A model generated the notes under the pieces. It was not told the DNA's origin. It searched no databases and saw only the letters and a program-made list of their open reading frames with translations. This document shows, piece by piece, positions 1,806 through 46,164 of a DNA stretch of 64,000 bases (position 1 is its first letter; each line of letters begins with the position of its first letter). The DNA comes from a virus (Duplodnaviria > Heunggongvirae > Uroviricota > Caudoviricetes). Location of the stretch: positions 1 through 64,000 of the IMG/VR virus record IMGVR_UViG_3300028887_000002. One strand, written 5' to 3'. Both the position numbers and the translations under genes were made by a program.

Positions 1806-1807
1806 AT

Positions 1808-2386: not shown

Positions 2387-2418
2387 CAAAGATAAGTCAA
2401 ATATTTGAAACTACCAAA
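2387..2418 (-). promoter_or_regulatory. Bacteroidetes primary-sigma (early) promoter
   Basis: Minus strand TTTG-N20-TATCTTTG. Confidence 0.8.
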
Positions 2419-2428
2419 GAAAAAGTGA

Positions 2429-2466
2429 AAAAAAATGACAGCTAGTTAGGAATGGACTGACTGTCA
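2429..2466 (-). terminator. intrinsic terminator
   Basis: TGACAG..CTGTCA stem followed by a T7 tract on the minus strand, downstream of 2503 ORF. Confidence 0.55.
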
Positions 2467-2502
2467 GGCATATTTATGGATGAAAAATTAAGAACTTAGT
2501 GG

Positions 2503-3096
2503 TTAGTTTGGTTTCACAATTTTGAAATCATATGCAATAACATACGGATTAGTTTTCCAAGTTCCCTTCTTCGAGACGTGGTCAATCAGTGAGGCGAATG
2601 CTTCCTTGGCGGTTGCAAAATGTTCTTTTGAACCTAGATAGGAAAAGTCTTCAGTTCTATCTTCATGAAATGGGCTTCCAAACTGCATTATCCCTTCTCT
2701 CAAACATTCCTCTTCGGGTATATCCTGTAATCTTTCGCAACGCATTCCTGTGATTTGGATATAGTGTAACATTTCTTCGGCCTTGACGAACATTTTGTTG
2801 CTCCAGCCGTTTGTTGTTGTATATTTTTCTTCAAAATACCTTTCTTCCTCACCATATCCGCCTTTCTTTTTAATCATAAGTTCCAATATATCCTCATAGG
2901 ACATTGCAATGGCAACAATTTCACCAACTTTGAAACGGCTATTCTGTATTGCATACTCCTCGAATGTTAATGCACTTTCGCTTGTTTTCCATTCACCATA
3001 AATCTTCTGTGGTACAGTACGTCTTGTCATTGTCTTTGAACTAAGAAGTGTCAGTTCCGTTAAACAATATTTGTCATTGAACATTATTTTTTGCAT
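2503..3096 (-). CDS. ASCH/PUA-like phage protein
   Basis: KTMTRR, NKMFVKAE, ERLQDI.EEECLREGI, W.TNPYV..YDF motifs; start moved to MQKIMFND. Confidence 0.65.
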   Translation of the reverse strand: MQKIMFNDKYCLTELTLLSSKTMTRRTVPQKIYGEWKTSESALTFEEYAIQNSRFKVGEIVAIAMSYEDILELMIKKKGGYGEEERYFEEKYTTTNGWSNKMFVKAEEMLHYIQITGMRCERLQDIPEEECLREGIMQFGSPFHEDRTEDFSYLGSKEHFATAKEAFASLIDHVSKKGTWKTNPYVIAYDFKIVKPN

Positions 3097-3129
3097 AATC
3101 GTTATTTTTTTGTTATTATTTTTTTTCAC

Positions 3130-3396
3130 TTAATCAGGAAACTTGCACCACCACTTGATATCATCAAACGAATCAAACAGATATTCACTGTCAACTATAT
3201 CATAGTGAGGAACTTTCTCACCATCACAAGTCTCATCATAAAAAGTTTGAAAGATGTGTCGGCTTCCATCATTCAACACTACAGCATAGTAGGTTGCCGA
3301 CCAGTCAATCGGCTGGTTGAATATATCATCTTCACTCTGTAGGTGCCAACAACAGTTGTCTAATAGTTTCTTCGTTTCTTCTATTGTTCTCTCCAT
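3130..3396 (-). CDS. hypothetical protein
   Basis: Operon packing. Confidence 0.55.
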   Translation of the reverse strand: MERTIEETKKLLDNCCWHLQSEDDIFNQPIDWSATYYAVVLNDGSRHIFQTFYDETCDGEKVPHYDIVDSEYLFDSFDDIKWWCKFPD

Positions 3397-3399
3397 AAT

Positions 3400-3678
3400 C
3401 TAATCATTTTCTATTGGTTCACAAGCCCCGAAATCGTCTCTATGCTGAATGCTATCACATTCAAACAATCCGACCTCATAGTCGCTATGGCATAGTTCAT
3501 AACTGTATTCAGCATAGAAATCAAATGTCCTATATTCTACATTATAAACCTTATGCGAATCTGAATAATAGAGAACCAAATAGCCATCCGAAATCTTTTT
3601 CAGTATCTGGTCGTATCCGCCATAGATGCCTATAACATTGCCTTCTTCTAAATTCTTTGATTCTTCTATTGTCATCAT
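3400..3678 (-). CDS. hypothetical protein
   Basis: Operon packing. Confidence 0.55.
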   Translation of the reverse strand: MMTIEESKNLEEGNVIGIYGGYDQILKKISDGYLVLYYSDSHKVYNVEYRTFDFYAEYSYELCHSDYEVGLFECDSIQHRDDFGACEPIEND

Positions 3679-3932
3679 TTTCTATATAGTTTTGGATTTC
3701 CTTCGTTGTCTGTTAACTGGACTATTGCAGTTCCATTCCCGCCTCTAAATGTTTCAAGATATAAACAACCAGTCTCTCTGTCAACCCATACTTTATAAGT
3801 CTATCCGCGTTCAACAACATCAACCATATCGCCCACGTCACCTCGTTCGTTGTCGCCACTAGTGCTGGTACAAGATACTGAACCAACTATTGTTGCAATT
3901 GCAAACGATAATATCAAAATAATCTTTCGCAT
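3675..3932 (-). pseudogene. lipoprotein-like ORF (DUF6440-like C-terminus) with in-frame TAG at codon 44
   Basis: MRKIILILSFAIATIVGSVSC...VERG*TYKVWVDRETGCLYL...LTDNEGNPKLYRK fills the gap between neighbours exactly. Confidence 0.6.
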
Positions 3933-3943
3933 AATATTATAAA

Positions 3944-4291
3944 TTAATATTTTCCATAAGGGTCGTGCAAATCCTCCCAACTTGGATATTGGTTAAGCCT
4001 CCACCACTCGCTTCCGTCATATTCTTCCCGTGAAAGCCAAGTGTTGTCGTTTAGACATATCATACCATACACATCTTGTCCACCGAAACCAGAATAATAT
4101 TCAAAGTCCAATTTGTTAAGGAAGTCCATTGCTTCATCCAGTGTGTGTTCTGGCGGAAGTTCAAGTTTAAGCGAATCAGGTTCGTAGAAAATCCTCCCGT
4201 AACTGATATGCCCTGCAAGTTCTTCAACACTCGTTGTATTTGTGACTTCTAATGTTTCTTCTAACAAGTTCTTATCATTATCATGGTACAT
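3944..4291 (-). CDS. conserved phage hypothetical protein
   Basis: LDFEYYSGFGGQ...WLSREEYDGSEWW motif. Confidence 0.7.
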   Translation of the reverse strand: MYHDNDKNLLEETLEVTNTTSVEELAGHISYGRIFYEPDSLKLELPPEHTLDEAMDFLNKLDFEYYSGFGGQDVYGMICLNDNTWLSREEYDGSEWWRLNQYPSWEDLHDPYGKY

Positions 4292-4304
4292 AATTCAAAA
4301 TATT

Positions 4305-4823
4305 TTAGATATATTCAGTTAAACATTTGCTAATTCCTGCGGACATAGCATCTTCAAAAGTCTCGTACTCCTTATGTTCAAGTTGTGCCATATCATCGTA
4401 TATATATTCACCCATAGTGGTTGATATGCTGAACGTCCAGAAAGACCACTTGTCGCATGAGCCACTTTCAGTATCATCCTTGCGGTCTTCCGCTGGGAAA
4501 ACGTTGATATGCAATGAATGATTTTCCCTCAACCATTTGCATATATCATATAGATGCGGTCTGGAACAACAAGTTTTACTTTTCTTGAAATTTTCGTTCT
4601 TGTTATAAAACTCATGTACCCATTCGCCTGGGACATACTCTATCTCATCACCTCTACCGTTAACCTTGAGGCTCCATTCATCATCCTCGTCAATATCTTC
4701 ACCATTATGTCTCACGGCAGTACCAAATGATGTTGCACACCATTCGTTATAGCCTTTTTCTTTTAGCAGCATACCAGTTTGGTAGTCGCAGAAATCCTTG
4801 TTGTCATCAATTTCCATAGTCAA
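4305..4823 (-). CDS. hypothetical protein (Bacteroidetes-phage type)
   Basis: LLKEKGY...KWLRENHSLHI...YETFEDAM; early promoter upstream. Confidence 0.65.
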   Translation of the reverse strand: MTMEIDDNKDFCDYQTGMLLKEKGYNEWCATSFGTAVRHNGEDIDEDDEWSLKVNGRGDEIEYVPGEWVHEFYNKNENFKKSKTCCSRPHLYDICKWLRENHSLHINVFPAEDRKDDTESGSCDKWSFWTFSISTTMGEYIYDDMAQLEHKEYETFEDAMSAGISKCLTEYI

Positions 4824-4845
4824 TATATACTTTCATTTCACTCCG

Positions 4846-4884
4846 CAAATATATGTACTATTTTTCAAACTGCCAAATATTTAT
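4846..4884. promoter_or_regulatory. back-to-back early (minus) and putative late TATTTAT (plus) promoters
   Basis: CAAATATA-N20-CAAA|TATTTAT; same arrangement at 22196-22234, 28671-28709, 52978-53016. Confidence 0.7.
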
Positions 4885-4904
4885 TATAAAAAATATATTT
4901 AAAT

Positions 4905-7715
4905 ATGAACAATAACAGAAATAACAATAGACAAATGTATGATTTACAATCTATTACCCCCCCCCCATCAAGTAATTTGACATTTGGGGAATTCGTACAA
5001 AACGTTGCAAACAGCAATCCTCAAATAGGTTGTGGCTTTATGGGGAATGTTTCATTTGCAACTGGTCTTCCGAATGGTCTTACAAACGGCACTATGACAG
5101 TAATATCCTACGGGGAAGGTTTTATAAAGTTCAGCCTTGATGTGGAAAATACCCCGAACCACTACGAATGCTACAGACTTTCTGACGGCTCTATAACCGA
5201 ATGGACAATCGGACAGGGCGGTGGCGGAGAAACTGAACTTATGAAAGAGGTTACATATTCTGAATTGAAGAAACTTCGTGATAACGGAGAACTTATACCT
5301 GGAATGAAGTACAGGATAACGGACTACGAATGTTCAACAAGTCAAGAATACACCCAAAGTGCATCCAATATGTTCGACATTATCGTTACTGCGGATGATG
5401 AACACACCCTGAATGAGAATGCAAGGGCTTGCAAACGTGACTGGGAGAAATACATCAATAATAATGTTAGTTTTGAACAGGGTGATAGTGAAATTACTAT
5501 ATATAGTAATATTGGAGAAATTAATAGTAAAACACTCACTTTAAATCCTAATGACTATCACTCTGCTGAAGAGGGGTATGACTTATATGGTGATTCTATT
5601 GAAGGTTTCTTCATATTAGTACCGAAAAATGTTTCGGATGAAGATATTAATTGTTGGAACGTATATATCCCAAATATGGGATATGTTTTGCCTGATTATG
5701 GCGTATATTCCACGGGTAAAAATTTGGCTGAATATTATTTGTCATTCATTGCCTACTTTGACAAGTCCAACCTTTCCGCTTGGGAGTTGAAGTACTGCTT
5801 GGATAATGATACCAGCAGGTTTGCGTGGGCGGTTGAAGGAGAACCTGGTGAATATTACCATTTGGTTGAAATTGTTGGGACTGATACTAAGGACTATACT
5901 TTCAGAACAATTTATGAAACTGAAGACTATTGGAGTGTATATAATATAAATGACCCATCAGTGGTCGGTTATATAAAACCAAAACTTGACCCAGTAACAG
6001 ATTCAAATTTTATATTATATACTGATGAACGCTTTGACGATGAGTATGGTGAGCCATATGGAAAGAATGGTGATGAAGCAACAGTTAAAGAAATCACCCT
6101 TGTTGATAACCCTGGTACTCCGTCAGGCAAAGGTGTTATCTACTATATGAAGGACGAGTGGGGTAACGAATGTCCTTATGATTTCAAGAACATAATGTTT
6201 TATGATTATGCGACAAGTAAGTATTATTATACCTTTGATAAAGAAGATGATACTGATGGGACAATTTCTAATTCTCTGAACTTCCGTAACAACAGGATAG
6301 ATAAATATTCTGGTAGAGATGAAAAAAAGTATTTACTTAATAATATAATATTTGTTGGCAAAGCAATAAACAATACCTTTGCAAACGATTGTCACGACTG
6401 CAAGTTTGATGCATCACTTGAAAGTTGCTGTTTTGGTGAAGGGTGTAACTATATTACTACAAATAATGTATCTGTGATTAGAAACTTGGTATTCGGTAAT
6501 AATGTCAATAACCTGCGCATAAGTTCGGATGATACTTTCACTGGTGTCTCGGATGGTTGGATATTTGACGCAAATACATTCATAGAAGGTTATTCAGTTG
6601 AAATCACACTTCCAGATTCTTTAACATTATATGATTATACTGAGAATAAACGTGTCACTAAGACAACTTCAGATAAGATTATAGCAATCCAAGAATATAT
6701 GGATAATAATTATACTATTCAAACTGATGTAACATTATTATACCCCAGTGGCGGACGTGGCGGTGTGATTGTGTATAACTCAAATTCAGAAATAACTGGC
6801 GATTGGATTGACACCAATACGGATACAACGCAAAACACCTACAACTCTGAAACAGGTGATGGAACTTTGCAACTGAACGAAGGCGTTGATGAAATCGGCG
6901 GTGAAGTTACTCGCCAAGGCCTCCGTGAAATGACAATTAACTCACCATTTTATATGAACACTGATGTGCGTAGCGTTGATATGACTAATAGCGGTATTGT
7001 GAGTATTGGTGAACAAGCCTTCAATGGTTGTACAAATTTATCTAGTGTAATAATATCAAATACTGTTACTAAGATTGATAAAATGGCATTTGCTGATTGT
7101 CCTCTAAACTCGGTTGATATTCCCGATAGTGTTGTTTTTATTGATAATCTTGCATTCAGCACTACAACTATCAACATAAATTACAATGGCTCGTCAAGTG
7201 GCTCGCCGTGGGGAGCGCAATATGTGAATGCCGATACTGATGTTAAAAGTGGTCTGATGTTTGGCGATTTTGATAGTAAGGTTTACTCCTGTTCGGTTAT
7301 CGGGTGTTTGTCAAAAAGTTATCCTGAAATAATCATTCCAAGTACGATTGATTATGAAAAGAGTACTTATAGTGTAACAACAATTAAAAGTTATGCATTC
7401 CGCAACTGCACAAACATACAGAGCGTAACAATACCTGTCGCAGTTGAAACTCTTGGTGAATATATATTTGATGGCTGCTATGTCTTATCAAAGGATGGAA
7501 AGATGAAAGTTAGCACAATACAAAGCGTAAAAGAAACAAGTTCGACAGTCCCAACAACAAAAGATACATTCGCGGATGATGTGACAATACCGAACTTGTA
7601 TGTTCCAACAGAAGAATCAATAACATATTATACAAAGGCTTGGGGTGCTTATTTCGCCAATATATCAACACAAAAGAAAAATAACGAAAATTCTGATGGC
7701 TCAGAACAAAAATAA
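4905..7715 (+). CDS. tail fibre / receptor-binding-like protein with BspA-type (LRR_5) repeats
   Basis: YSELKKLRDNGELIPGMKYRITDY and YYMKDEWGNECPYDFKNI modules, beta-helix-like N/F-rich stretch, C-terminal IGEQAFNGCTNLSSVIISNTVTKI repeats; TATTTAT upstream. Confidence 0.65.
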   Translation: MNNNRNNNRQMYDLQSITPPPSSNLTFGEFVQNVANSNPQIGCGFMGNVSFATGLPNGLTNGTMTVISYGEGFIKFSLDVENTPNHYECYRLSDGSITEWTIGQGGGGETELMKEVTYSELKKLRDNGELIPGMKYRITDYECSTSQEYTQSASNMFDIIVTADDEHTLNENARACKRDWEKYINNNVSFEQGDSEITIYSNIGEINSKTLTLNPNDYHSAEEGYDLYGDSIEGFFILVPKNVSDEDINCWNVYIPNMGYVLPDYGVYSTGKNLAEYYLSFIAYFDKSNLSAWELKYCLDNDTSRFAWAVEGEPGEYYHLVEIVGTDTKDYTFRTIYETEDYWSVYNINDPSVVGYIKPKLDPVTDSNFILYTDERFDDEYGEPYGKNGDEATVKEITLVDNPGTPSGKGVIYYMKDEWGNECPYDFKNIMFYDYATSKYYYTFDKEDDTDGTISNSLNFRNNRIDKYSGRDEKKYLLNNIIFVGKAINNTFANDCHDCKFDASLESCCFGEGCNYITTNNVSVIRNLVFGNNVNNLRISSDDTFTGVSDGWIFDANTFIEGYSVEITLPDSLTLYDYTENKRVTKTTSDKIIAIQEYMDNNYTIQTDVTLLYPSGGRGGVIVYNSNSEITGDWIDTNTDTTQNTYNSETGDGTLQLNEGVDEIGGEVTRQGLREMTINSPFYMNTDVRSVDMTNSGIVSIGEQAFNGCTNLSSVIISNTVTKIDKMAFADCPLNSVDIPDSVVFIDNLAFSTTTININYNGSSSGSPWGAQYVNADTDVKSGLMFGDFDSKVYSCSVIGCLSKSYPEIIIPSTIDYEKSTYSVTTIKSYAFRNCTNIQSVTIPVAVETLGEYIFDGCYVLSKDGKMKVSTIQSVKETSSTVPTTKDTFADDVTIPNLYVPTEESITYYTKAWGAYFANISTQKKNNENSDGSEQK

Positions 7716-7720
7716 ACACA

Positions 7721-8506
7721 ATGCAAACAAATGCAATCCATAACATTATAAACTCCTCACAGATAAATTACTCTGACGGGGAGTTTTTTCTTTCGCAACC
7801 GTTCACAATATTGTTGACCGCTTGTACACATCCGCGCACGGAGACCAACACACCGCCAGTCCTGCGTGAATGTCAGATTGAACAAAGCATTGGGTTTTAT
7901 AGTTCACTACCATTTGTCAAGAATGTTGTAGTTGTAGACAATTCCGACTATGATATTATGCAATTCAACAAGTTTGATAAGGTTATTGCCTTGCACGTTT
8001 CACCAGTTGTTGATTGTGGCGCTGACACTAAGAAATTCTATGTGAACAAGACCGCAGGTGAAATTCAGTTAATCCGCACTGCTCTTGAAAGCATACCGAA
8101 TAATGACTTTATTGTGAAAATCACAGGTCGCCTGTTAATTCCTGAACTGGAAGGGATAATCACACATTTAGGTTTCACCAAGTTCAATGTTGCGCAATAT
8201 TATCCAAAGGAGCATTGGTTGTCTACTTGGTTCTTTGGTGCACCTTGCAAGATGTTGAAAGATTTGTTCCGTGATGAATTTGATATGCACGGGACATTGG
8301 AACATATGTTGTTTGAAAGGCTACCTTCGAAAATTATAAAACCGATTAAGGGCGAATGGGAAGTTGTAGGTAAGCCTGACTCCGCTTGTGTGTACCACAC
8401 ACCAAACTATCGTTTTGACGGCGTCACAGAACTTGAAAAGAAAGATGGGTACTCGATAATTGAAAAGTTGTTTCCGTCACTAATTCAAAAAGGAAACAAA
8501 CTATAA
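7721..8506 (+). CDS. putative glycosyltransferase-like protein
   Basis: ILLTAC, VVVDNSDY, GEIQLI, IVKITGR, LEH motifs. Confidence 0.45.
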   Translation: MQTNAIHNIINSSQINYSDGEFFLSQPFTILLTACTHPRTETNTPPVLRECQIEQSIGFYSSLPFVKNVVVVDNSDYDIMQFNKFDKVIALHVSPVVDCGADTKKFYVNKTAGEIQLIRTALESIPNNDFIVKITGRLLIPELEGIITHLGFTKFNVAQYYPKEHWLSTWFFGAPCKMLKDLFRDEFDMHGTLEHMLFERLPSKIIKPIKGEWEVVGKPDSACVYHTPNYRFDGVTELEKKDGYSIIEKLFPSLIQKGNKL

Positions 8507-35571: not shown

Positions 35572-35615
35572 AGTTTCTTGAAATATTTTTTTTTCACTCA
35601 ACAAAAATATAACAT

Positions 35616-36062
35616 TTATTTGGAGCTGCCAAATATTTTGTCAATTTTCTTTCCGTTTTGGTACGCAACATATGTCCCGTCAACAAAATATAGGTTGATA
35701 TCGGACTTGCCGTATTTAGAAAATTGAGAATAGAACCATTCGTCCTTTGTGAACAGACGTCGTTTCATATTGTCGGTGAGTGTTGAATTGACAAATGATG
35801 GTCTAACCAGTTCAGCCTTTCTGCTTTCGTTTTTCGCCGTTTCTGAATTTCCGTCCCGATAGTTCGACAGACAACTGGCGTAATGTTTAAGGTAGTCTAG
35901 ATGACTGCTGTACATCTTCACGACTGGATGGTTTTTCCATGCGGTACTTTCGCCTTTGATTGCCTTGACGATTTGGTTGCATTCGACTATCTGCTTGTTC
36001 AACCTCCGTCTGTCAAGGACTGACGCTGTGTAGTATGGCGTTCCGAGAATAAAGATTTGCAT
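35616..36062 (-). CDS. denV: pyrimidine-dimer DNA glycosylase / endonuclease V family
   Basis: MQIF...LDRRRLNKQIVECNQI...WKNHPVVKMY...LFTKD..FYSQF. Confidence 0.8.
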   Translation of the reverse strand: MQIFILGTPYYTASVLDRRRLNKQIVECNQIVKAIKGESTAWKNHPVVKMYSSHLDYLKHYASCLSNYRDGNSETAKNESRKAELVRPSFVNSTLTDNMKRRLFTKDEWFYSQFSKYGKSDINLYFVDGTYVAYQNGKKIDKIFGSSK

Positions 36063-36069
36063 GGTTATA

Positions 36070-36348
36070 TTACTTAAAAATGGTTTCACAATAAAATGCT
36101 AACGGTTTATCTTTGAACTGATATTCCTCAATAACAGCATCTTCAGTGAATTCTATCTCGTTTTTTGTTTCATAATCAATGGAAACACCAACATTGATAA
36201 TGCGTCCGAACCAAGAACTTTTGTCATAAAAGAAACACTTGGTAGGTCTAACTACAATGCCATCGGGAAATTTCACCCGACACTGCAAGGTTGGGCAGAA
36301 ATAACTCCTATTGTTATCAAGTCTATAATATTTGTTAGTTTCAATCAT
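36070..36348 (-). CDS. hypothetical protein
   Basis: Operon packing. Confidence 0.5.
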   Translation of the reverse strand: MIETNKYYRLDNNRSYFCPTLQCRVKFPDGIVVRPTKCFFYDKSSWFGRIINVGVSIDYETKNEIEFTEDAVIEEYQFKDKPLAFYCETIFK

Positions 36349-36367
36349 TTGTTCTATTTTTGTTTAA

Positions 36368-36412
36368 TAAAACGGGCAAGAAGTCCCCTTCCTTCGGGTG
36401 GGGGTAGTTCAT
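36368..36412 (+). mobile_element. 45-bp solo LE/RE hybrid scar of the 37832-39308 element
   Basis: TTTAA|TAAAACGGGCAAGAAGTCCCCTTCCTTCGGGTGGGGGTAGTTCAT: starts like the left end, ends like the right end. Confidence 0.85.
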
Positions 36413-36615
36413 AGTCCTAATGTTAAATCTTTCTCTTCTCCGTCATCAGTCACTATAAAAGTGCCATGATAACTTGCTACAAACAAGTCTGCTTCTACAT
36501 CGTAATAGTATGGATGATTCGTTCCAGGTCCATACTCACTCTTTGGAGTATCTGCATAGACTTTGTAATAGGTCTTGCACAACTCTTCTATCTTCTGTTG
36601 TTTCTCTATTGTCAT
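36409..36615 (-). CDS. hypothetical protein
   Basis: Ends LTLGL* with or without the scar. Confidence 0.6.
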   Translation of the reverse strand: MTIEKQQKIEELCKTYYKVYADTPKSEYGPGTNHPYYYDVEADLFVASYHGTFIVTDDGEEKDLTLGL

Positions 36616-36617
36616 AA

Positions 36618-37487
36618 TTACTCTCCTATTAATATTCTCTGTTCAACATAGTCTCTATCCTGTGTGAGAATTGGCATATCATAATCAATAATCCACTCTT
36701 TACGAATTTCACCATTCTCTAAAGTTCTTGGAATCTGGATTACTGCAACTCCTCTCTTGAACTTCGTAGGAATGTCATTCCAGTTGATTCCTTTCTCAGT
36801 CATTAGCATATCTTGAATGTCATTGCAAGATTTCTTGAACAACTGCTTTGGTGAATAGTGATACCTTCCGAGCATCTCAATAGAGTTTCTTGTAGCATCT
36901 TGCTGCCTCCAAATCACACAGTTACAAACCTCCTCTTTAGGTATATTGAAGCATCTTGCATCGAACATTGCAGTGCCTTCTACTGACTTATAAGTTTCTA
37001 ACAACTTTTCAATCTTTTCAGTATCTTCTAAGTCCAGACCATACACTTCTTTGAATTGTGTCTTATGTTTTTCAAATGAAGGATTGTTAAACGCATAATC
37101 TCTTTGAAAAAATATATCTACAAATTCTTTGAAATATTTATTGAACAACATAGTAGCCATTGAAGCAGTAATACTACACATCTTCTGAACTTCATAGCCA
37201 AACCACGCTTCTGTATTCAACTTCTCATAATCCTGAAGTACCAATGTAATTTCATCAGATTGAGTATAGCCAAATACACAGCCTTGAATTCTCTTACAAA
37301 GCTCTTTAGTGGTCTCAGCCATTGTGTATTGTAATACATAATCATAAGGCTTGTTGAAATGCCTTGTGAAAGTGTGAAAAGCCTTGCCGTCGATTCTTAT
37401 GATTACTGGAGTTCTTCTCATAAGCGAAGTCTTTGAAATGCCTTCATAATAAGACTTCATTCTATCACCTAAACTATCTTTTGTCAT
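36618..37487 (-). CDS. tRNA(His) guanylyltransferase Thg1-like protein
   Basis: LGDRMKSYYE, IRIDGKAFHTFT, GYTQSDEI, FDAR, WRQQDATRNS. Confidence 0.93.
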   Translation of the reverse strand: MTKDSLGDRMKSYYEGISKTSLMRRTPVIIRIDGKAFHTFTRHFNKPYDYVLQYTMAETTKELCKRIQGCVFGYTQSDEITLVLQDYEKLNTEAWFGYEVQKMCSITASMATMLFNKYFKEFVDIFFQRDYAFNNPSFEKHKTQFKEVYGLDLEDTEKIEKLLETYKSVEGTAMFDARCFNIPKEEVCNCVIWRQQDATRNSIEMLGRYHYSPKQLFKKSCNDIQDMLMTEKGINWNDIPTKFKRGVAVIQIPRTLENGEIRKEWIIDYDMPILTQDRDYVEQRILIGE

Positions 37488-37491
37488 AATT

Positions 37492-37702
37492 CTTATTTGT
37501 TTTCTTTTACATCAAGATAAATTACTTCAATATTTGGCATTCCTTCTTCATGCGGAATAGGGTCCATTTCATCATCACCAGTAGTTGGAAAAGCACCTTA
37601 TTTAGATATATCTATATTTGATGCATCGTATCTCTCAAAATTCAAATCATTATCACAAACAGTTCCGACTATTTCTACTTCTTTAATATCACTAATTTTC
37701 AT
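37492..37702 (-). pseudogene. small ORF interrupted by an in-frame TAA
   Basis: MKISDIKEVEIVGTV...IDISK*GAFPTTG...DVKENK*. Confidence 0.35.
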
Positions 37703-37750
37703 ATCTCTATATATTTTTTTTAAATCTTATATTCTATTATTTTGTTTCTC

Positions 37751-37912
37751 TTAAATATACAATTCCCAAGAAAAATTTAGTTTTCTTCCATTGTCTGTTG
37801 GAAGATGTGGTGCAGATTTAATTGCATTTAATAATACGGGCAAGAAGTCTCCTTCCTTCAGGTGGGGGATGAATTGCCCTTGGTTGATAATATCGTTAGT
37901 TATCTCTGTCAT
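37751..37912 (-). CDS. chimeric ORF: IS-encoded start fused to the 3' half of the interrupted phage gene
   Basis: MTEITNDIINQGQFIPHLKEGDFLPVL|LNAIKSAPH...WELYI; promoter at 37936-37967. Confidence 0.55.
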   Translation of the reverse strand: MTEITNDIINQGQFIPHLKEGDFLPVLLNAIKSAPHLPTDNGRKLNFSWELYI

Positions 37913-39308
37913 ATCGTTTCTTTGATTTGACGCTGCAAATATACAACGTCTTTTTGAAACCACCAAACTTTTTTTGAAAAAAATAAATATTCTTGAAATT
38001 ATATATAAATATTGTTATATTTATATATAAAACGACTTTCATTATGAAGGAACTACGAGGTTACAGGTACAGGATTTATCCGAACGCCGAGCAGTCAACC
38101 ATAATTGCACGGACAATAGGGTGCGCCCGCCTCGTATATAACCTTCTCCTTGCGGACTTCACCTCCCAACTGGGCGGCGAGGAAAAACCCAAACTCCATG
38201 AAGTGACGTACTTCAAGAAGGACAGGCCGTTCTTGTCAGAAGTGGATTCGCTTGCTTTGGCAAACGCCAAACAGAACATCCAGACCGCCCTGACCAACTG
38301 GAGCAAGTCCAGGAAAGGTCAACGCAAGGGCAAAAGGGTCGGGTTCCCGACTTTCCACAGCAAGGCGAAATCCCGCCTGTCCTACAAGACGAACAACCAG
38401 AACGGAACCGTGAGGATTGAAGGTAATTACCTTAAACTGCCGAAGGTAGGCTATGTCAAGATTGTCCTTGACAGACCACCCGCTGGCGACATACGCTCGT
38501 GTACCGTGGAGCAGACAAGGGATGGAAAGTTCTTCGTGTCCCTCTGCATGGAGGTTGAGATTGAAACGAAACAAAAGAACAAACGATATGACGACCTCAA
38601 GGTCGTGGGGGTGGACATGTCATTCCCGCACTTCTCGGTCGACTCGGAAGAAATATCTGGCGATACGAAAGCCAAGTACGTCAGGCAGTACCGTGAGAAC
38701 GAGAAAAAGTTGAAACGGCTTCAACGCTGGGTTTCAAGGAAGAACAAGGGTTCTGCGAACTACGCGAAGGCGAAGCGGAGGCTTGCCGAACTGCATGCCT
38801 ACATTGCCAACTGCCGAAGGGATTTCTGCCACAAGACGTCCCGATGGTACGCGGAGAACTGGGACGTTATTGTCCTTGAGGGCATAAACATGCAGACGAT
38901 GGCACGGCTGCACAACAACGGCAAGTCCGCCAACGACCTTGGGTTCGGGATGTTCAAGGGATTTCTTGAATACAAGTGCAGGGAGACTGATTCCATCGTG
39001 ATGTATGTGGACAGATGGTTCGCAAGTAGCAAGACCTGCCACTGTTGTGGGTATAAGAAGACCGACTTGGAATTGAGGGACAGGAAGTGGACTTGTCCGC
39101 AGTGCGGAACGCACCACGACCGCGACCTGAACGCAGCCTTGAACCTCAGGGATTATTTTTACAGGGTCGTCACGGAAGAAAACTACAATACCGCAGGGAC
39201 TGCGGGAATTTACGCCTCAGGAGAGGCGACCTCTACGTTAAGGGAAACCTTAAGGCAAGCCGCCTCATTGAACGAGGAAACCCCTTCCTTCAGGTGGGGG
39301 TAGTTCAT
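37832..39308 (+). mobile_element. IS605/IS1341-type tnpB-only element inserted 3' of TTTAA
   Basis: LE and RE share CCTTCCTTCAGGTGGGGG (37851-37868, 39283-39300); precise removal restores a 57-aa minus-strand ORF; no target duplication. Confidence 0.9.
38044..39303 (+). CDS. tnpB: TnpB RNA-guided endonuclease
   Basis: YRYRIYPN..GCARLVYN, VGVDM, IVLEGIN, SSKTCHCCG..WTCPQCG, HDRDLNAA; ATG at 38044 after TATTTAT at 38018. Confidence 0.95.
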   Translation: MKELRGYRYRIYPNAEQSTIIARTIGCARLVYNLLLADFTSQLGGEEKPKLHEVTYFKKDRPFLSEVDSLALANAKQNIQTALTNWSKSRKGQRKGKRVGFPTFHSKAKSRLSYKTNNQNGTVRIEGNYLKLPKVGYVKIVLDRPPAGDIRSCTVEQTRDGKFFVSLCMEVEIETKQKNKRYDDLKVVGVDMSFPHFSVDSEEISGDTKAKYVRQYRENEKKLKRLQRWVSRKNKGSANYAKAKRRLAELHAYIANCRRDFCHKTSRWYAENWDVIVLEGINMQTMARLHNNGKSANDLGFGMFKGFLEYKCRETDSIVMYVDRWFASSKTCHCCGYKKTDLELRDRKWTCPQCGTHHDRDLNAALNLRDYFYRVVTEENYNTAGTAGIYASGEATSTLRETLRQAASLNEETPSFRWG

Positions 39309-39401
39309 CAGTGTTTCAAAAGCAACTGTTGCCTCCATCATTCCGCACACAGTTTCATCACGAATTATCTTTGCTATATATTTTTTATCGTCTGTGGTCA
39401 T
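39309..39401 (-). pseudogene. 5' half of the gene interrupted by the IS
   Basis: MTTDDKKY...VAFETL joins LNAIKSAPH... in frame. Confidence 0.7.
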
Positions 39402-39402
39402 A

Positions 39403-39864
39403 CTATTCTTCTGAATTTAAAATGTCATAATATGGTTTAAATTTACCTTTAAAGTGACCAACGGCTACTGCATAATACCATAAAGTTCTCAATGCCAAAT
39501 TACTGAATTGCATTGGAAGTGTTCTACCTACTAAATGTCCTTCGTTGCATTCATCCAATGTCAAAATCTCTTTTGGCTTATTGTCAGAGCACCAATCATT
39601 GAAGTACATTTTTTCAGCATTATCTGCTACTACATAAATGCACTTACTAAGGTCAAAAGTATTATTTTCAAAATCACCCTTAACTGCACTATAACACATT
39701 AAATAGTCATTTAAAGTCTTGATTATATTTGCTCTCTGTTGAAATTTCTTTTCATCCGCTTTAAATTCTAAATATTCCTTCTCAATCTTATCGTGATTTA
39801 CTTTAGAATACAATCTATCAAAGTCTTCAAAAGAAATTTTCTTATCTAACATATAAACACTCAT
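39403..39864 (-). CDS. hypothetical protein
   Basis: Operon packing. Confidence 0.55.
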   Translation of the reverse strand: MSVYMLDKKISFEDFDRLYSKVNHDKIEKEYLEFKADEKKFQQRANIIKTLNDYLMCYSAVKGDFENNTFDLSKCIYVVADNAEKMYFNDWCSDNKPKEILTLDECNEGHLVGRTLPMQFSNLALRTLWYYAVAVGHFKGKFKPYYDILNSEE

Positions 39865-39896
39865 AATATAATTGTTTTTTTATATTTTATAAATCT

Positions 39897-40319
39897 TTAC
39901 TTTGAACTGTTTGCTTTATAGTATTCTTTTCGCTCTTCTATAATCTTTTCAATGTTCAATATGTCATCAAACGTGCAAAAGCCGTAAGTATGATTGTTTC
40001 CATCAAAACGATAGTGCAAAGGAGAATACTTTAATATCACTTTATTTGGATGTACCGTAACATGATTGAACATAGAAAATGGAAAATGTGGAACATTTCT
40101 ATCATCTAAGAAAGCATCAATAAAATATTCCCAGTCTGGATATGACTTTATATGCAATAATATTGTATTTTCATCTGAATATATTACTTCTTGGTCTGTA
40201 CGGATTTTCATATATCTATCAGCAGCATCTTGCATCACTTTAGATATATTTTCTACTTTTGAATTAGTAAGTAACTCTCGTTCTATTTTAACTCTGTCAA
40301 AAACTTTTTTATTTTCCAT
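39897..40319 (-). CDS. hypothetical protein
   Basis: 140-aa ORF. Confidence 0.55.
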   Translation of the reverse strand: MENKKVFDRVKIERELLTNSKVENISKVMQDAADRYMKIRTDQEVIYSDENTILLHIKSYPDWEYFIDAFLDDRNVPHFPFSMFNHVTVHPNKVILKYSPLHYRFDGNNHTYGFCTFDDILNIEKIIEERKEYYKANSSK

Positions 40320-40496
40320 TGTATTATTTTTTTATTTTATATTAAGTTATTTAATTTATTAAAATTCTTAACAAAAGATTCACAAAATGACCATGATGTA
40401 ATCTTACTATTCTCTACGCACGAAAGAATATGATTGACTTCATCTTCTGCCACTTTATTCAGTGTTTCTTTCACAATATCTTCAGTTCTCATAAGC

Positions 40497-41021
40497 CTAT
40501 TCCTTCTCCTTCAACTTTATCGGCTGCAATGTGCGGAATATCTCATCGAACAGGGTGTGATTACACTCGAAGAAATACTCGTAAACTTGACCAATAAGAT
40601 TGCTTGATTCTGCGAAGCCCATAAAGTAATGCTCCTTGCAGTCGAGGTGTATCTTGTTGAGCGTTTCAATGAAATCCGTACAGGAAGTGCCGAACACATG
40701 TGCAATACCACCAGCCGAATAAACCCATTTTTCGATGATATAGCCTTCCTTATACAACCACTTCGGAGTCAGACCGCCTTCATACAACTTCCAATACTTC
40801 AGCGATGGTAGGTTGGTCTTTTCTAACTTTTCCTTAAACTCATCAATCGGTACGGCAATCCATACGCATACATCCGTCACTGGATAACCCTCTCTTAATT
40901 TTTCACAAAGATAATCGGTGACAATCCCCTTGAACTCCTTGTATGTATCCGTAGGCACATTATTCTTCTTCACATCATTGAAGAACTCTTCCCAAAACTT
41001 GTTACAAATGTCTGTAATCAT
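40497..41021 (-). CDS. hypothetical protein
   Basis: 174-aa ORF. Confidence 0.55.
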   Translation of the reverse strand: MITDICNKFWEEFFNDVKKNNVPTDTYKEFKGIVTDYLCEKLREGYPVTDVCVWIAVPIDEFKEKLEKTNLPSLKYWKLYEGGLTPKWLYKEGYIIEKWVYSAGGIAHVFGTSCTDFIETLNKIHLDCKEHYFMGFAESSNLIGQVYEYFFECNHTLFDEIFRTLQPIKLKEKE

Positions 41022-41048
41022 AATCTTAAAAATTTATTTTTATTAAAC

Positions 41049-42326
41049 CTATTCCTTGTTATATACTAATCTTCCTATTGGACTTTTGCCAAACTTAACC
41101 TCGTAGATTCGCCCAGTTCCCATCTCACTGTACCAGTCACGACAGGTCTTGATTCGTTCCAATGCTTCTTCCATAGTCTTGCAGTACACTGTTATCTCGG
41201 TGTCGGATTCGTCCACCGTGTTCTCTATGTAGTAGAACTTGCTGTAGTCGGTTGTCTTCTTTTCATTGTCCTTCTCGAATTTTTTCTGCAAATTTTTGAA
41301 GTCAGCTATCTCTTGCTCCGTGGCATACTCGTACTTGTTTATTTCATCCTGCGTAAGAGCATAGCGAGTACCTTCGGAATCATAACAGAACCAGCATCTT
41401 CCTGCGCTGTTGTAGCCATCCACCCTAAACAAATGCAAATAGCCTATCCCGACTGTCCTGTCAATTATAATGTCATTGGTATGGAACATCTTGTCCGTTG
41501 CTTTGGTGTTGGCTTCTTCAATGTTCTTTTTCTCTGCATCTATAATCTTCGGCATCACCTCGTTGCGATGCTCCATCATCTTCCGCAGCACTTTCTTCGG
41601 GTCACAGCAGAACACCTCGCATACCACGCGGAATGTATCGTTTCTGTGCTTCTCGTACATATCTTCCAATATGTCTTCATCGTCCAATAACCCCATATTT
41701 TCGGCAAGCGCGTATGCTGGGTGCAACCTGCCCCAAGTTTTCGCCTGTGCCTTTATGATATTATTGGTAATCTCAATAGTTTCTTTAAGGTCAAGTTGTT
41801 TCTTTGCGTCCTTGTTGTCTTTCTCGAATTTGTCCTGTGACTCTCTGAACAACATCTGTTCTTCCTTCGTAGCATATCGGTAGTTCTTCAATTCTATATC
41901 AAGTATAGAAATATTGGCATTATCCTTGTCAATACACTCTAAATACTTACCATTAAAACCTCTAACCTTAAATACAGGATAATATGGAAGACCCGTAAGC
42001 GGATGATTTCTATAAATTATGTCACCATCCTTGAACAAGCGTGCCTGCCAGTTCTTCCAACTCCTATATGATTGGGATGGGAACAGCATACATTCCGAAG
42101 TATCTATTTCATTTTCTTCTTCAATTCTTCCACAAGGTTTCCCAGATTCATTAAACTTATATGTAATATACGAGTATCGTTTATTCTTCGGGTCTAATTT
42201 TGATACTCTTACAAAGATAAAGTTCCGTGAACACTCCAAAAACTCACAATATCCGTACAATGGGCTGTAAAGCCTCGTGTATAATGGACAGTCCCTTAAA
42301 AATTCAATTATTCTTTCTTGTTTCAT
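41049..42326 (-). CDS. modular hypothetical protein (paralog of 60628-61497)
   Basis: LYSPLYG...ECMLFPS..R.W..WQ..LFK.GD and repeated Y.YAT.E modules. Confidence 0.65.
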   Translation of the reverse strand: MKQERIIEFLRDCPLYTRLYSPLYGYCEFLECSRNFIFVRVSKLDPKNKRYSYITYKFNESGKPCGRIEEENEIDTSECMLFPSQSYRSWKNWQARLFKDGDIIYRNHPLTGLPYYPVFKVRGFNGKYLECIDKDNANISILDIELKNYRYATKEEQMLFRESQDKFEKDNKDAKKQLDLKETIEITNNIIKAQAKTWGRLHPAYALAENMGLLDDEDILEDMYEKHRNDTFRVVCEVFCCDPKKVLRKMMEHRNEVMPKIIDAEKKNIEEANTKATDKMFHTNDIIIDRTVGIGYLHLFRVDGYNSAGRCWFCYDSEGTRYALTQDEINKYEYATEQEIADFKNLQKKFEKDNEKKTTDYSKFYYIENTVDESDTEITVYCKTMEEALERIKTCRDWYSEMGTGRIYEVKFGKSPIGRLVYNKE

Positions 42327-42343
42327 AATATGTAAAATTTTAT

Positions 42344-42727
42344 TTAGTTATACATTCCTTCTTCCGCCTCCACAGCCAAGCCCTTCGGTATTAAACCTCG
42401 CCAGTCGAAGTGATGAGCATTAAGCCAATCAATATAATTGGGTATTGCATCCTCAATACCCCCTTCAATATCATCAAGGAAAGCACATCTTCTTGTATCC
42501 TCTTCCTTTGTCATACTTTTCATTGACCGCAAGTACGGCTTGAATATAATCTCGTGGAAGTACAGCCTTGTAATCTTCCCGCTTATGTACCCCAGACAGT
42601 AGTCGTGCTGGACTCTGGTCTTCCACCCCTCGTCCGAACCTTCGGTCTCCATAAGCACCCAAGTATTGTACGGCACTCTTGCTGACAAGTCCTTTATGAG
42701 CAGTTTCTTTTGTTCTTCGGTTATCAT
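42344..42727 (-). CDS. hypothetical protein, paralog A
   Basis: LLIKDLSARVPY..KPYLRSM.SMT.EE..IDWLNAHHFD.RGLIPKGLA. Confidence 0.7.
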   Translation of the reverse strand: MITEEQKKLLIKDLSARVPYNTWVLMETEGSDEGWKTRVQHDYCLGYISGKITRLYFHEIIFKPYLRSMKSMTKEEDTRRCAFLDDIEGGIEDAIPNYIDWLNAHHFDWRGLIPKGLAVEAEEGMYN

Positions 42728-42730
42728 AAA

Positions 42731-42952
42731 TTAATAATTTGGTTCATATACTAAAATTCCTACATTGTAATAGTAAAAATATGCTGGAAGTTCTGTTTGG
42801 TCAATCTTTTTAGACTTACTTAAATAGTCTTCTAACATATCGTTAGAAAAAGTTCTAATATGTTGATTATCTCCACTATGCTCGCAATTTCCACAAAATG
42901 GATATTCAGTTCCGTATGTTTCTAGATTGTATCTTTCTTTTTCGACAGTCAT
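42731..42952 (-). CDS. hypothetical protein
   Basis: Operon packing. Confidence 0.5.
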   Translation of the reverse strand: MTVEKERYNLETYGTEYPFCGNCEHSGDNQHIRTFSNDMLEDYLSKSKKIDQTELPAYFYYYNVGILVYEPNY

Positions 42953-42965
42953 AATTGGTTGTTTT

Positions 42966-43361
42966 TTATTTATACATCCCTTCTTCCGATTCCAATGCCA
43001 AGCCCTTCGGTATTAAACCTCTATAGTCGAAGTGATGCGCATTGAGCCAATCAATGCTGTCAGCGATAGAATAATCAGCGTCATACATCCACCTTTCAGT
43101 AATATATTGATATTCCACCTTTTCTTCCTCCGTCATACTCTCCATTGGGCGGAGATAAGGTTTAATGTTTTCAAGTGTTTTTGTATCATTCCAGAATGAA
43201 GCAATCCAAGTTCCTTTACGCCAAGCCCAAGTGGATTTGGCGAGTTTCTCTATGGAATAGATTGTTATCGGGTTATTATGCCCATTAACTTTTGCTTTAA
43301 CACCATATGATAATCTTGCAGTTAAATCTTTCAATAATATTTTCTTTTCTTCATCTGTCAT
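42966..43361 (-). CDS. hypothetical protein, paralog B
   Basis: Same terminal motifs as 42344-42727. Confidence 0.7.
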   Translation of the reverse strand: MTDEEKKILLKDLTARLSYGVKAKVNGHNNPITIYSIEKLAKSTWAWRKGTWIASFWNDTKTLENIKPYLRPMESMTEEEKVEYQYITERWMYDADYSIADSIDWLNAHHFDYRGLIPKGLALESEEGMYK

Positions 43362-43535
43362 ATCTCAATCATTTTGTTGTCCCTTAATACAATCTTATGG
43401 TAGCCGTATGGCACTTCCACCCGCCTCGTGAACATACCCTCTCTGGCGTTGACTGGCGAGCCGACATACACTTGCGGTATCATTTCGTAGTCATGGAACT
43501 CTATGTGAAACTCCTTCGGCTTCATATTCTAAATG

Positions 43536-43817
43536 TTAGGCATAATATTCTTCTGGCATAGGTACTTCGTATTCAACAGTATCAAAAATACCAATACCAA
43601 TATATGAATTGAATATCTTTTGTGCAACCATTTCATAAGGTATTAAAGTTATTACCTTCACATCGTCGGTAATAATTTCAGGCTCTTTAAATTTCTTTTC
43701 CAAGTGTTTAAGGTATGCACTCATTTTTGTCCTCTGCTTTTTTGTTAATGGTTTTATATGTTCCCCATTAACAAGCATATATTTTTCAATATGCTCTAAA
43801 ATTTTTTCTGTGTTCAT
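43536..43817 (-). CDS. hypothetical protein
   Basis: Start moved to MNTEK. Confidence 0.5.
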   Translation of the reverse strand: MNTEKILEHIEKYMLVNGEHIKPLTKKQRTKMSAYLKHLEKKFKEPEIITDDVKVITLIPYEMVAQKIFNSYIGIGIFDTVEYEVPMPEEYYA

Positions 43818-43936
43818 AGTCAATATTTTTAATTTAGTTATAATGTACCGTGTCCTTCGTGTCGGCTTCGCCGTCCGCCATATCCAGCACTTCCCTGACC
43901 GAGTAGTCGCCCCCGTCAAAGACCTTGTACTTCGCG

Positions 43937-44362
43937 TCAATGCCTTCCTTCCTCATAGATAAGTTTCCTTGTATGTGTGACCATCTTTAGTGCTTGAATC
44001 AACTCGTTCATCAGAATATCGGAAAAATCATTGAACCCAATGAACTGGTTATATTTTTCCTGCTCTTTCTCACTCAAACTATTCCACTTATCCATCATAC
44101 ATTGCCACCATTCGTGAGACTGCTTGCTTGCATATTCGTGAATCATTTCATCTGTAACAATATCCTCCCAAGATACATCGGTTTGTTTACTGATTTCTGT
44201 ACTCAACATATTTGCCAATTCTTTTTCTTGTTCTTCTGTAACATCTGCCACGACTATTGGCTTACCCATAGGCTCAAAAGTCACAGTGCATTCAATCGGT
44301 TTTCCGTCTTTGCCTCTTGGAATGCCACCTTTGACAGTTTTAGATATTAGTTCTATTTCCAT
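43937..44362 (-). CDS. hypothetical protein
   Basis: Operon packing. Confidence 0.5.
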   Translation of the reverse strand: MEIELISKTVKGGIPRGKDGKPIECTVTFEPMGKPIVVADVTEEQEKELANMLSTEISKQTDVSWEDIVTDEMIHEYASKQSHEWWQCMMDKWNSLSEKEQEKYNQFIGFNDFSDILMNELIQALKMVTHTRKLIYEEGRH

Positions 44363-44371
44363 AACCTATAA

Positions 44372-44647
44372 CTATTCCTCTGTTGATTTGAATTCAAAAG
44401 GTATGATACTACGGATTTCTTCGATAAGTTCCATATAGTCGTGTCCGACAAGACCTATCTCGGTTATACAGGTTTCGTCTTCGTTAGTATCGAAGAATGG
44501 TACACTCTTTCCATCCTTCATTATACAACCCAAACATGAGTGTGGTGTGTGACGGTTGTCCATTTCGTAATCAACCTTAACTGTGTAGCCGTTCTTGACC
44601 AGTTCGTCAATCGGCAGTCTGTTTGTAATGTGAATAGTCTTAATCAT
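44372..44647 (-). CDS. hypothetical protein
   Basis: Start moved to MIKTIH. Confidence 0.5.
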   Translation of the reverse strand: MIKTIHITNRLPIDELVKNGYTVKVDYEMDNRHTPHSCLGCIMKDGKSVPFFDTNEDETCITEIGLVGHDYMELIEEIRSIIPFEFKSTEE

Positions 44648-44654
44648 AGTTTCG

Positions 44655-44981
44655 TTAATTTTTGTGTTTATATTCAGCAATTTTTGATGTGAAAATGACA
44701 TACATATTTTTCCCTTGAATCTTTTTGATTGGGCATTTGTTTTCCTTTGCGACCTGTCGGAATGCAGAAGCAAACTTCTTGTCTGCGCCAGTTATGCAGA
44801 TTTCAAAGACATAGTGGTACGGTTGCTGGTAGAGTTCGTTCTTGAAGTAGGTGAAACTTTCAATCTTTGCACCGCAACGCAATGACTTGATTTGTTTCAG
44901 TATGTCTTCGTGACGTTTTTCAACTGCCTCCAAACGTTCTCTTTTTGACATTTTCTGATATTTTTCAATTGTTTCTTTCAT
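44655..44981 (-). CDS. hypothetical protein
   Basis: Behind the promoter at 45007-45037. Confidence 0.55.
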   Translation of the reverse strand: MKETIEKYQKMSKRERLEAVEKRHEDILKQIKSLRCGAKIESFTYFKNELYQQPYHYVFEICITGADKKFASAFRQVAKENKCPIKKIQGKNMYVIFTSKIAEYKHKN

Positions 44982-45048
44982 ATCTTATTTTCTTTCAAAT
45001 TTTGCACAAAGTTAAACAATATATTTCAAACCACAAAACAAAATTTCA

Positions 45049-46164
45049 CTAATTTGAATATTTGTTGAGAAAATCCTTTATAGCATCCTTTATTGCTGTC
45101 GCTAAAAATGTTGGCACCGCATTAGCAATTTGAAGGTTCTTATCTTTTTTTGTACCATAGAACATGTAGTTATCAGGGAAACCTTGTATTCTTGCGCCTT
45201 CTCTCCTTGTTAATGGTCTGGGCTGTTTAGGGTGGATACTGCGTGTGGCTGATGCTGTATCGAAATTCCTTGTAATTGTTGTGGAAGGACGATTCCACCA
45301 AAGTCTGCAATAGAAATTGTTGAACCCAACTGTTGGTCTTAATTCCTCTGGTGCATCCAAAGGTGTTCCGCCATCGGGAAGTGAATCCATAAAGGCGACC
45401 AGTTTCGGTGTAATCTTTGGACAATCGTGGTCGGTTATCTTTGATGGGGCATCATTTCGCATAAGTCTTTGGTATTCGTTTTCTGGTTCGATGGTATAAT
45501 TGACCCAAGATTGATTTGTACCAATGACAGGTAAATCACCGATTGCTTCACCCAGCGTAACATAAGGTGATAACCCTTCTTTATAGGAATCTGGCTCTTC
45601 AGGATTATAATGTGTTGGTTGAGGATATGTGAATTCGTATCCCAAATTATTACCTACGATTATTACCCTTTCCCTAATTTGAGGTGTTCCATAATCAGCC
45701 GCGTTCATTAGTTTAATGTCAACATGATACCCTAATGATTCAAAGAGACTTATTATCTTTTTTATTAGTTTGCCACCTTCCATTGAGAGAAGCCCTTTGA
45801 CATTTTCAAAGACAAACATTTTGGGCTTAATTTCCAACAATATGCGATAATATTGTTGGAACAATTTCCCTCTTTCGTCACCTTCTGCTCTTTTTCCTGC
45901 GGTAGAGTATGCTTGGCAAGGAGGCCCGCCTATTACAACGTCAACATCACCTTCCTTTATACCCAGGTCTTCAGTTAGATTTTTCAGTCCAAAATCCTTG
46001 ATGTCACAGTTATACATTTTGACTGTGGGATGGTTTAAAGAATATGCTTTTGCCATTGGCTTAAGTATTTCATTCGCGGCGACAATTTCAAAAGATTTGT
46101 CGTGGGCAAAACCATATGAGAGGCCACCAACACCAGAAAATATGTCAATCACTTTATATGCCAT
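45049..46164 (-). CDS. dcm: DNA (cytosine-5) methyltransferase
   Basis: DIFSGVGG, GGPPCQ, FENVKG, PQIRER, REGARIQGFPD, QIANAVP. Confidence 0.95.
   Translation of the reverse strand: MAYKVIDIFSGVGGLSYGFAHDKSFEIVAANEILKPMAKAYSLNHPTVKMYNCDIKDFGLKNLTEDLGIKEGDVDVVIGGPPCQAYSTAGKRAEGDERGKLFQQYYRILLEIKPKMFVFENVKGLLSMEGGKLIKKIISLFESLGYHVDIKLMNAADYGTPQIRERVIIVGNNLGYEFTYPQPTHYNPEEPDSYKEGLSPYVTLGEAIGDLPVIGTNQSWVNYTIEPENEYQRLMRNDAPSKITDHDCPKITPKLVAFMDSLPDGGTPLDAPEELRPTVGFNNFYCRLWWNRPSTTITRNFDTASATRSIHPKQPRPLTRREGARIQGFPDNYMFYGTKKDKNLQIANAVPTFLATAIKDAIKDFLNKYSN

Follow-up and report, generated by a model that had tools for sequence, protein, structure and literature searches.

A 45-bp one-hairpin stub in a giant phage genome, probably a core-deletion relic of a tnpB-only IS605-family element

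The stub and its full-length relative

The window analysed here comprises the opening 64,000 nucleotides of a virus record of 339,287 bp. It contains a 45-mer, termed s1, which lies among minus-strand genes in DNA of approximately 37% G+C, at the end of a gene for a 68-amino-acid protein (p68) that represents a real gene family of small proteins (Table 1). The 38-39 kb region is approximately 50% G+C and contains the tnpB gene of the only full copy, in this genome, of a tnpB-only IS605-family element. The product of this gene has the HTH_OrfB_IS605, OrfB_IS605 and Cas12f1-like_TNB domains (Pfam), and its stop codon falls inside the right-end (RE) hairpin. The left end (LE) of the element starts TAATACGGGCAAGAAGTC, and its guide/cut-site pairs are AAGT/TTAA (left) and GAAA/TCAT (right). 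All contigs that encode the exact right-flank protein of the full element have kept the element.

Table 1. Features of the stub s1, the full element and the other stubs of the genome (window positions equal record positions)
Feature	Position	Strand	Remark
TTTAA target / transposon-adjacent motif (TAM)	36363-36367	+	immediately 5' of stub
s1, terminal-only ('solo') derivative: LE 5' segment, one hairpin, RE tail	36368-36412	+	boundaries fixed by empty alleles
LE 5' segment, 17 nt	36368-36384	+	matches LE of element 37832-39308
Left guide GL, AAGT	36381-36384	+	last four bases of LE segment; pairs IS608-style with TTAA
Near-terminal imperfect palindrome, 20 nt, CCCCTTCC / loop TTCG / GGTGGGGG	36385-36404	+	type common to LE and RE
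RE tail TAGTTCAT, 8 nt	36405-36412	+	tip of right end
Right cleavage site TCAT	36409-36412	+	within RE tail
68-aa phage ORF, p68	36409-36615	-	TGA stop inside stub
Full tnpB-only IS605-family element (single full copy in genome)	37832-39308	+	after TTTAA 37827-37831
LE hairpin of full element	37849-37868	+	part of 37832-39308
tnpB of full element	38044-39303	+	419-aa TnpB
RE hairpin of full element	39281-39300	+	
Tail of full element	39301-39308	+	
s2	206552-206596	-	identical to canonical LE/RE composite
s3	287021-287065	+	in frame near 3' end of conserved phage gene
s4	297548-297593	-	one additional base in loop
s5	299305-299350	+	one additional G after hairpin; directly behind TAA stop

The 45-mer starts TAAAACGGGCAAGAAGTC and ends GGGGGTAGTTCAT, the end resembling the RE at 39296-39308, and it matches a composite of the LE and RE at 43 of its 45 bases. 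An 18-bp core, for which 0.01 chance matches are expected, occurs three times in the window, once in the stub (36387-36404) and twice in the full element (37851-37868 and 39283-39300); the stub copy differs from both of the others by a single base, an A>G change in the loop. BLAST within the 339-kb genome returns E=1e-11 for the LE part and E=4e-8 for the RE part, values at which the likeness is not due to chance, and the stub recurs at this site in independent assemblies of several samples. A fortuitous similarity or an assembly artefact can thus be virtually dismissed. The anatomy set out in the original prediction, a 45-mer that follows TTTAA, begins like the LE, holds one core with one mismatch and ends like the RE, is all there in the sequence, and the 45-mer is indeed a hybrid of the ends of the neighbouring IS605-type tnpB element, with 17 nt of LE, a hairpin and 8 nt of RE.

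The palindrome of the stub is of a putative TnpA-binding hairpin type. Its stem is of 8 bp with a T.T mismatch, its predicted fold is of -5.7 kcal/mol, and 17 nt lie 5' and 8 nt 3' of it. Directly 5' of the core, the stub and the RE have C where the LE of the resident full copy has T; since the related LEs of contigs L104 and L115 again have C, the T is private to the resident full copy and the ancestral direct repeat shared by LE and RE was of 20 bp. The stub has no protein-coding capacity at 45 bp, whereas its parent encodes TnpB (IS1341-type). It bears the hallmarks of a PATE, in that LE and RE are joined via one palindrome, the insertion lies 3' of a target motif, there is no target-site duplication and there are no terminal inverted repeats.

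The stub has left the host protein as it was. With the stub in place p68 ends in LGL and a stop, and removal of 36368-36412 gives ...GGA CTT TAA, which is still LGL and a stop, as had been predicted; in empty alleles the host ORF stops at the minus-strand TAA of TTTAA. No terminator-like site was found on either strand between 36000 and 36800, and a reading of the stub as an intrinsic terminator was rejected, the signature of a GC-rich stem-loop followed by a T run being absent from that interval.

Rfam gave no match for the stub. The omega-RNA/RE region of the full element (window 39242-39307) gave a sub-threshold match to the C0465 sRNA (26 bits against a cut-off of 40, E=0.12), which is probably due to chance. 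The LE-proximal regions of this element (37880-38040) and of a second IS family described below (genome 338,020-338,190) have a conserved cassette in common, ..GCAAA.ATACAACGTCTTTTTGAA...

Copies and alleles of the stub

A blastn-short inventory of the genome returned five stubs of 45-46 nt, s1 among them, against the one full copy. All five are preceded by TTTAA, as is the full copy, end in TTCAT, have C just 5' of the core, and are located at gene ends. Their 5' variants are distributed pairwise, TAAAAC being found in s1 and s5 and TAGTAC in s3 and s4, and neither is present in the resident full copy. In the host gene of s3 the 45 bp amount to 15 codons, and the homologues all end ...ENLI and a stop. 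At this gene (genome 286,651-287,082; 168 homologues) the usual ...ENLI end is replaced by ...ENLIVRARSPLPSGGGSSLKTNL and a stop; as the insertion is in frame, the protein that the phage makes here may have a tail derived from the transposon.

At the s1 site, both stub and empty alleles exist. All contigs encoding the identical 68-aa protein retain the stub at the same place, and it is present in every contig of the G/L104/L293 clade, which has the gene order Thg1 / 68-aa / 92-aa / Pyr_excise. The sister lineages L279-281 have an empty site, TTTAA/AGTCTTAATG (that is, TTTAA/AGTC), with the ORF ending CTT TAA, and other empty sites read TTTTAA/AATCC (L278, L282) and ATTAA/AATCC (L283-292). These empty alleles place the stub boundaries at 36368 and 36412 and show that the target was not duplicated. 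Within the clade the stub has been inherited vertically and is slowly decaying: lineage G has the loop A>G change, L104/L105/L108 have a T>A change in the guide, and L293/L294 have the guide T>A together with a 1-nt stem insertion. The difference of 2-3 of 45 bases between lineages, beside flanks that are 92.8-97.9% identical, fits ordinary drift, with no sign of excision. Empty, full and stub alleles had all been envisaged for this site; the first and last of them were found, and no full-length element was seen at s1 in approximately 35 contigs with the host ORF, which carry stub or empty alleles only.

The other sites give a similar picture. s2 is absent from relatives in which both flanks are conserved (gttata/ttaaa; TTTAA/TATAAC), a clean 45-bp difference, and as these include the L104-type lineage s2 is younger than s1. 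The relatives of s3 read gaaaatTTAA/tataa at the gene end on the left flank, and homology ends at the stub; the s3 host ORF, used as a query in viral contigs, returned no related loci. Among the relatives compared, no full alleles were found at s2 and s3, only stub and empty ones. A further set of IMG/VR relatives, reached via the neighbouring Thg1-like gene (80 loci, approximately 55% aa identity), is uninformative on alleles because both the hairpin and homologues of the flanking small ORFs are missing there.

Stubs are not confined to this genome. Taken together with phage or metagenome contigs, 20 distinct stubs were collected, and they are present in several subfamilies that differ in their tips (TAGTTCAC, TGATTGAC, TTGTTGAC). 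A search of metagenomes with an LE pattern gave stubs as 12 of 44 matches; this pattern detects solely stubs with a left-end-type hairpin, an ascertainment bias for which a complementary scan was added. Among 185,579 cellular species genomes none has the LE pattern; the bare core is common in cellular genomes as IS ends, yet none of 120 loci there is a stub. The comparison of 12/44 metagenome with 0/120 cellular loci is only suggestive, the search designs being different.

Guide pairing and mobility

In IS608 cleavage takes place 19 nt 5' and 10 nt 3' of the hairpins, at sites that each pair with a 4-nt guide lying 5' of the hairpin foot (PMC3201880). Across 177 distinct sites with the hairpin studied here, drawn from this genome and from contigs of viral, metagenome and cellular origin, the same guide/cleavage-site rule is obeyed. 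At left ends the fourth guide base is in Watson-Crick register with the last base of the target (TAM) in 47 of 52 cases, and the two covary, T occurring with TTTAA, A with TTTAT and G with TTTAC. At right ends the fourth guide base pairs in the same way with the last element base in 55 of 67 cases, with the covarying combinations GAAA/TCAT, GAAG/TCAC and GAAT/TCAA.

The sole guide of s1, AAGT, pairs with TTAA, and its fourth base is unpaired with the final T of TCAT. By the IS608 rules s1 thus lacks the two hairpins and two guides of a transposition-competent IS200/IS605 element. The same holds more widely, since among the 20 distinct stubs, with one guide each, the guide fits the left site only in 15, the right site only in three and neither in one. 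A single guide that matches at most one of the two cut sites makes canonical two-ended excision unlikely, and on pairing grounds the stubs are probably immobile. Pairing between guide and cut site at the wild-type RE is mostly non-canonical, and given this, one mismatch at the fourth position may leave cleavage possible.

These results bear on the suggestion, made in the original prediction, that the 45-mer is a minimal mobile unit with one hairpin. It would then be an extreme PATE that spread after a single collapse, being moved in trans by a Y1 TnpA and inserting 3' of TTTAA via its left guide. Such a unit would account for the excess of stubs over full elements, five to one in this genome, and for insertion polymorphisms at s1, s2 and s3 in which stub and empty alleles alternate and the full allele is never seen, observations that count against a relic. 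The pairwise 5' variants missing from the resident full copy can be explained as easily by copying of stubs. The spacing of both cut sites from the one hairpin, moreover, resembles that of IS608 (17 nt 5' and 8 nt 3', against 19 and 10 in IS608, PMC3201880), and the same possibility was raised for six 52-bp stubs of ISHwa23 (PMC3119063). An enzyme can also be named, since the genome has a gene for an intact Y1 TnpA at 338237-338590, and other phage-like contigs (L113, L116/125/134/150, L111/119 and L020) contain cognate tnpA-tnpB versions of the s1 hairpin family. However, the guide of each stub pairs with at most one of two cut sites whereas full elements covary at both ends, and a TnpA dimer normally synapses two hairpins. 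s1 has never been lost across a clade diverged by up to approximately 7%, while stem and guide mutations accumulate in it. The crossover point and the number of G residues at the junction vary between subfamilies, and the genome's only intact Y1 tnpA, which adjoins a tnpB running across the record ends, belongs to an element with hairpins of a different class (CCCACG...). The guide analysis has weakened the mobile unit, which is the main rival reading and which we regard as rather unlikely.

A REP-like precursor had also been proposed. The stubs resemble REP elements in having a single short hairpin related to IS200/IS605 ends, but unlike REP/RAYT (TnpA-REP) systems they number only five in 339 kb, none is paired as in an inverted BIME, there is no RAYT context, the sole intact Y1 gene being the tnpA of a tnpA-tnpB element, and they are the fused ends of a resident tnpB element. 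This proposal has found no support.

The record ends hold features of their own. A complete tnpA-tnpB IS605-type element spans them (genome 338,0xx-339,287 joined to window 1-690), and a 127-bp 'direct terminal repeat' lies inside its tnpB, with a third occurrence at genome 237447, in another tnpB copy; since the repeat falls inside a repeated tnpB it looks like a k=127 assembly overlap rather than a physical phage terminus. A second IS family, which includes the tnpA-bearing copy (genome 292,947-294,513; 337,960 onward; L104 reverse strand 5104), is preceded in all cases by TTCAT or TCCAT, and its LE hairpin has GAAA on the 5' side; this guide/cut-site pair is also that of the right end of the studied element. 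The target motif of the second family thus equals the right tip of the family studied here.

Deletion between end repeats, precedents and significance

Stubs of several subfamilies fit independent deletions between end repeats. The LE and RE hairpins of L151 are set apart by a compensatory pair of changes, the RE having TTGC..GCTG with the stem preserved, and the stub has the LE hairpin and RE tail with its junction within TGGGGG. The L295 stub, in turn, consists of the LE 5' part with an RE-type guide and hairpin, and its junction is in GCAAGAA, 5' of the hairpin. L151 had raised a junction mechanism specific to the hairpin foot and catalysed by TnpA, which was dropped in view of the L295 junction. 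An additional G is present at the hairpin/tail junction in s5, L114 and L109. Junctions that vary within the available LE/RE identity are as repeat-mediated deletion predicts, and crossover points and junction G-counts that differ across subfamilies argue for many origins rather than one mobile founder.

Deletion between end modules is also seen in the relatives. L104 has a 148-bp LE fragment 878 bp upstream of the s1 stub, and in L106 and L107 the outer flanks are joined by one chimeric stub, of which the 5' part is of the LE-fragment type and the rest of the s1 type. Both contigs, which were assembled separately from two samples and in at least one case at k=141, a value above the repeat length, have lost the Pyr_excise and 92-aa genes through recombination between two end modules. 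The comparison of L104 with L106/L107 shows a natural 878-bp deletion between two such modules.

Block order in this region differs more broadly between L104 (reverse strand 1760-8207), L106 and L107 and window 35602-45959, with breakpoints at IS-end modules; the order in the relatives is 40347-42351, the 148-bp LE fragment, 35602-37481, a tnpB element (equivalent to genome 292947-294513) and then 44414 onward. At genome 335,540-335,780 there is an LE-like hairpin, GCCATCCCTTTAGGGTGGC, with a promoter-like cassette resembling that of the full element, and at 335.7 kb the last 33 codons of a Y1 tnpA (minus strand) are fused via a 9-nt match, CAGGTGGGG, to an RE tail, GGTGGGGGTAGTTCAT. This remnant represents a microhomology deletion of a once-autonomous element.

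We consider that the 45-mer is probably an immobile relic left by core deletion of a tnpB-only IS605-family element. Such an element would have entered the end of the 68-aa gene on the 3' side of TTTAA, with its LE and RE carrying the same 20-nt hairpin as a direct repeat approximately 1.4 kb apart. Repeat-mediated deletion, whether through slippage or a template switch in replication, through phage recombination, or through copying that was aborted in the course of insertion or homing repair, would then have removed tnpB, the omega-RNA scaffold and one hairpin copy, so that LE(1-17) and the 8 terminal nt of RE remained with one hairpin between them. As the single guide AAGT fits the left cut site TTAA and not the right one, TCAT, the product would not be excised by a Y1 TnpA, and it would subsequently have been passed on vertically under neutral decay. 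The original proposal that recombination between LE and RE deleted tnpB thus stands as the best explanation, in view of the hybrid anatomy, the varied crossovers, the 878-bp deletion and the Haloquadratum precedent; we infer a collapse at s1 itself, where no full allele was seen.

A by-product of the layout would be that the TAM and the former target are kept apart, such that omega RNA from a full allele would be unable to cut the stub allele. With 45 bp between TAM and target, and a target that now follows TTCAT, immunity to the cognate TnpB would follow from the layout under the TnpB homing model of Meers et al. (PMC10055086). It could be supposed that the phage retains the stub for some benefit, as a homing-immune allele, as a 3'-terminal RNA hairpin of the p68 message or as a portable homology patch for module exchange. 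Besides the separation of TAM and target, this would suit the position of stubs exactly at gene ends, the break of homology with relatives at s1 and s3, and the two-gene deletion mediated by end modules in relatives. However, a terminator-like signature is lacking, the stability of the hairpin is unremarkable (z -0.97 and -0.55), and orthologous copies carry changes in the guide and loop and changes that disrupt the stem. Gene ends are mosaic boundaries in any case, TTTAA is natural at TAA stops in an AT-rich genome, and this genome encodes no omega RNA with the matching guide, AGTCCTAATGTTAAAT. Retention for usefulness is thus very unlikely. A broader scenario, in which giant-phage stubs are produced at a high rate during insertion or TnpB-driven homing, or move as 45-mers, and then persist as homing-immune alleles and as homology patches that drive deletions and module shuffling, is speculative and in our view improbable.

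The closest precedent for a core-deletion relic is in Haloquadratum walsbyi, where "core deletions ... by repeat-mediated deletion" have been described (Dyall-Smith et al. 2011, PMC3119063). There, the tnpB-only ISHwa23 was reduced from 1500 bp to a 52-bp PATE via a 19-bp repeat resembling the near-terminal palindrome, and of HqIRS46, which has a 22-bp repeat, one strain has the complete element and the other a 52-bp form; six strain-specific 52-bp ISHwa23 copies occur without full alleles, and mobilisation of stubs was raised as a question (PMC3119063). The phage stubs share with these PATEs a tnpB-only IS605-type parent in which the LE and RE palindromes form a direct repeat of approximately 20 bp, a product of approximately 50 bp with fused termini, one palindrome and no target duplication, and several stub insertions without full alleles (PMC3119063). 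They differ in that the host is a 339-kb phage and not a haloarchaeon, in the length of 45 bp and in the target TTTAA, and the pair of complete and deleted alleles that proves deletion was found in Haloquadratum, not among the contigs here (PMC3119063).

As in IS608 and ISDra2 (PMC3201880; for homing, PMC10055086), insertion is 3' of a short motif without duplication, hairpins are subterminal with cut sites approximately 17-19 nt 5' and 8-10 nt 3' of the hairpin foot, and the cut site pairs with four guide bases on the 5' side of the foot; the TAM, further, coincides with the motif targeted by TnpA, and the element is protected against its own omega RNA by the RE end. Whereas those elements have two hairpins and two guides, the stub has one of each, and it is without tnpA, tnpB and an omega-RNA scaffold. 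The analogy with solo LTRs holds insofar as recombination between an element's own direct terminal repeats would remove the body and leave one repeat. The repeat here is of approximately 20 bp, however, not hundreds, and unique LE and RE tips are kept on either side; at this length microhomology or slippage is likelier than classical homologous recombination. The kind of element has therefore been known since 2011 from haloarchaea, and s1 is a new phage example rather than a new kind. What is new is the phage setting, the allele series, the guide/cut-site analysis and the existence of stubs with different crossover points.

Collectively these results indicate that the core-deletion route of haloarchaeal IS605/TnpB elements also operates in a giant phage, apparently often. 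For annotation, they account for short GC-rich hairpin islands at gene ends and for in-frame 15-codon inserts in AT-rich phage genomes. For the biology of TnpB, natural empty, stub and full alleles bear on whether TnpA acts on stubs with one hairpin and whether stubs resist RNA-guided homing.
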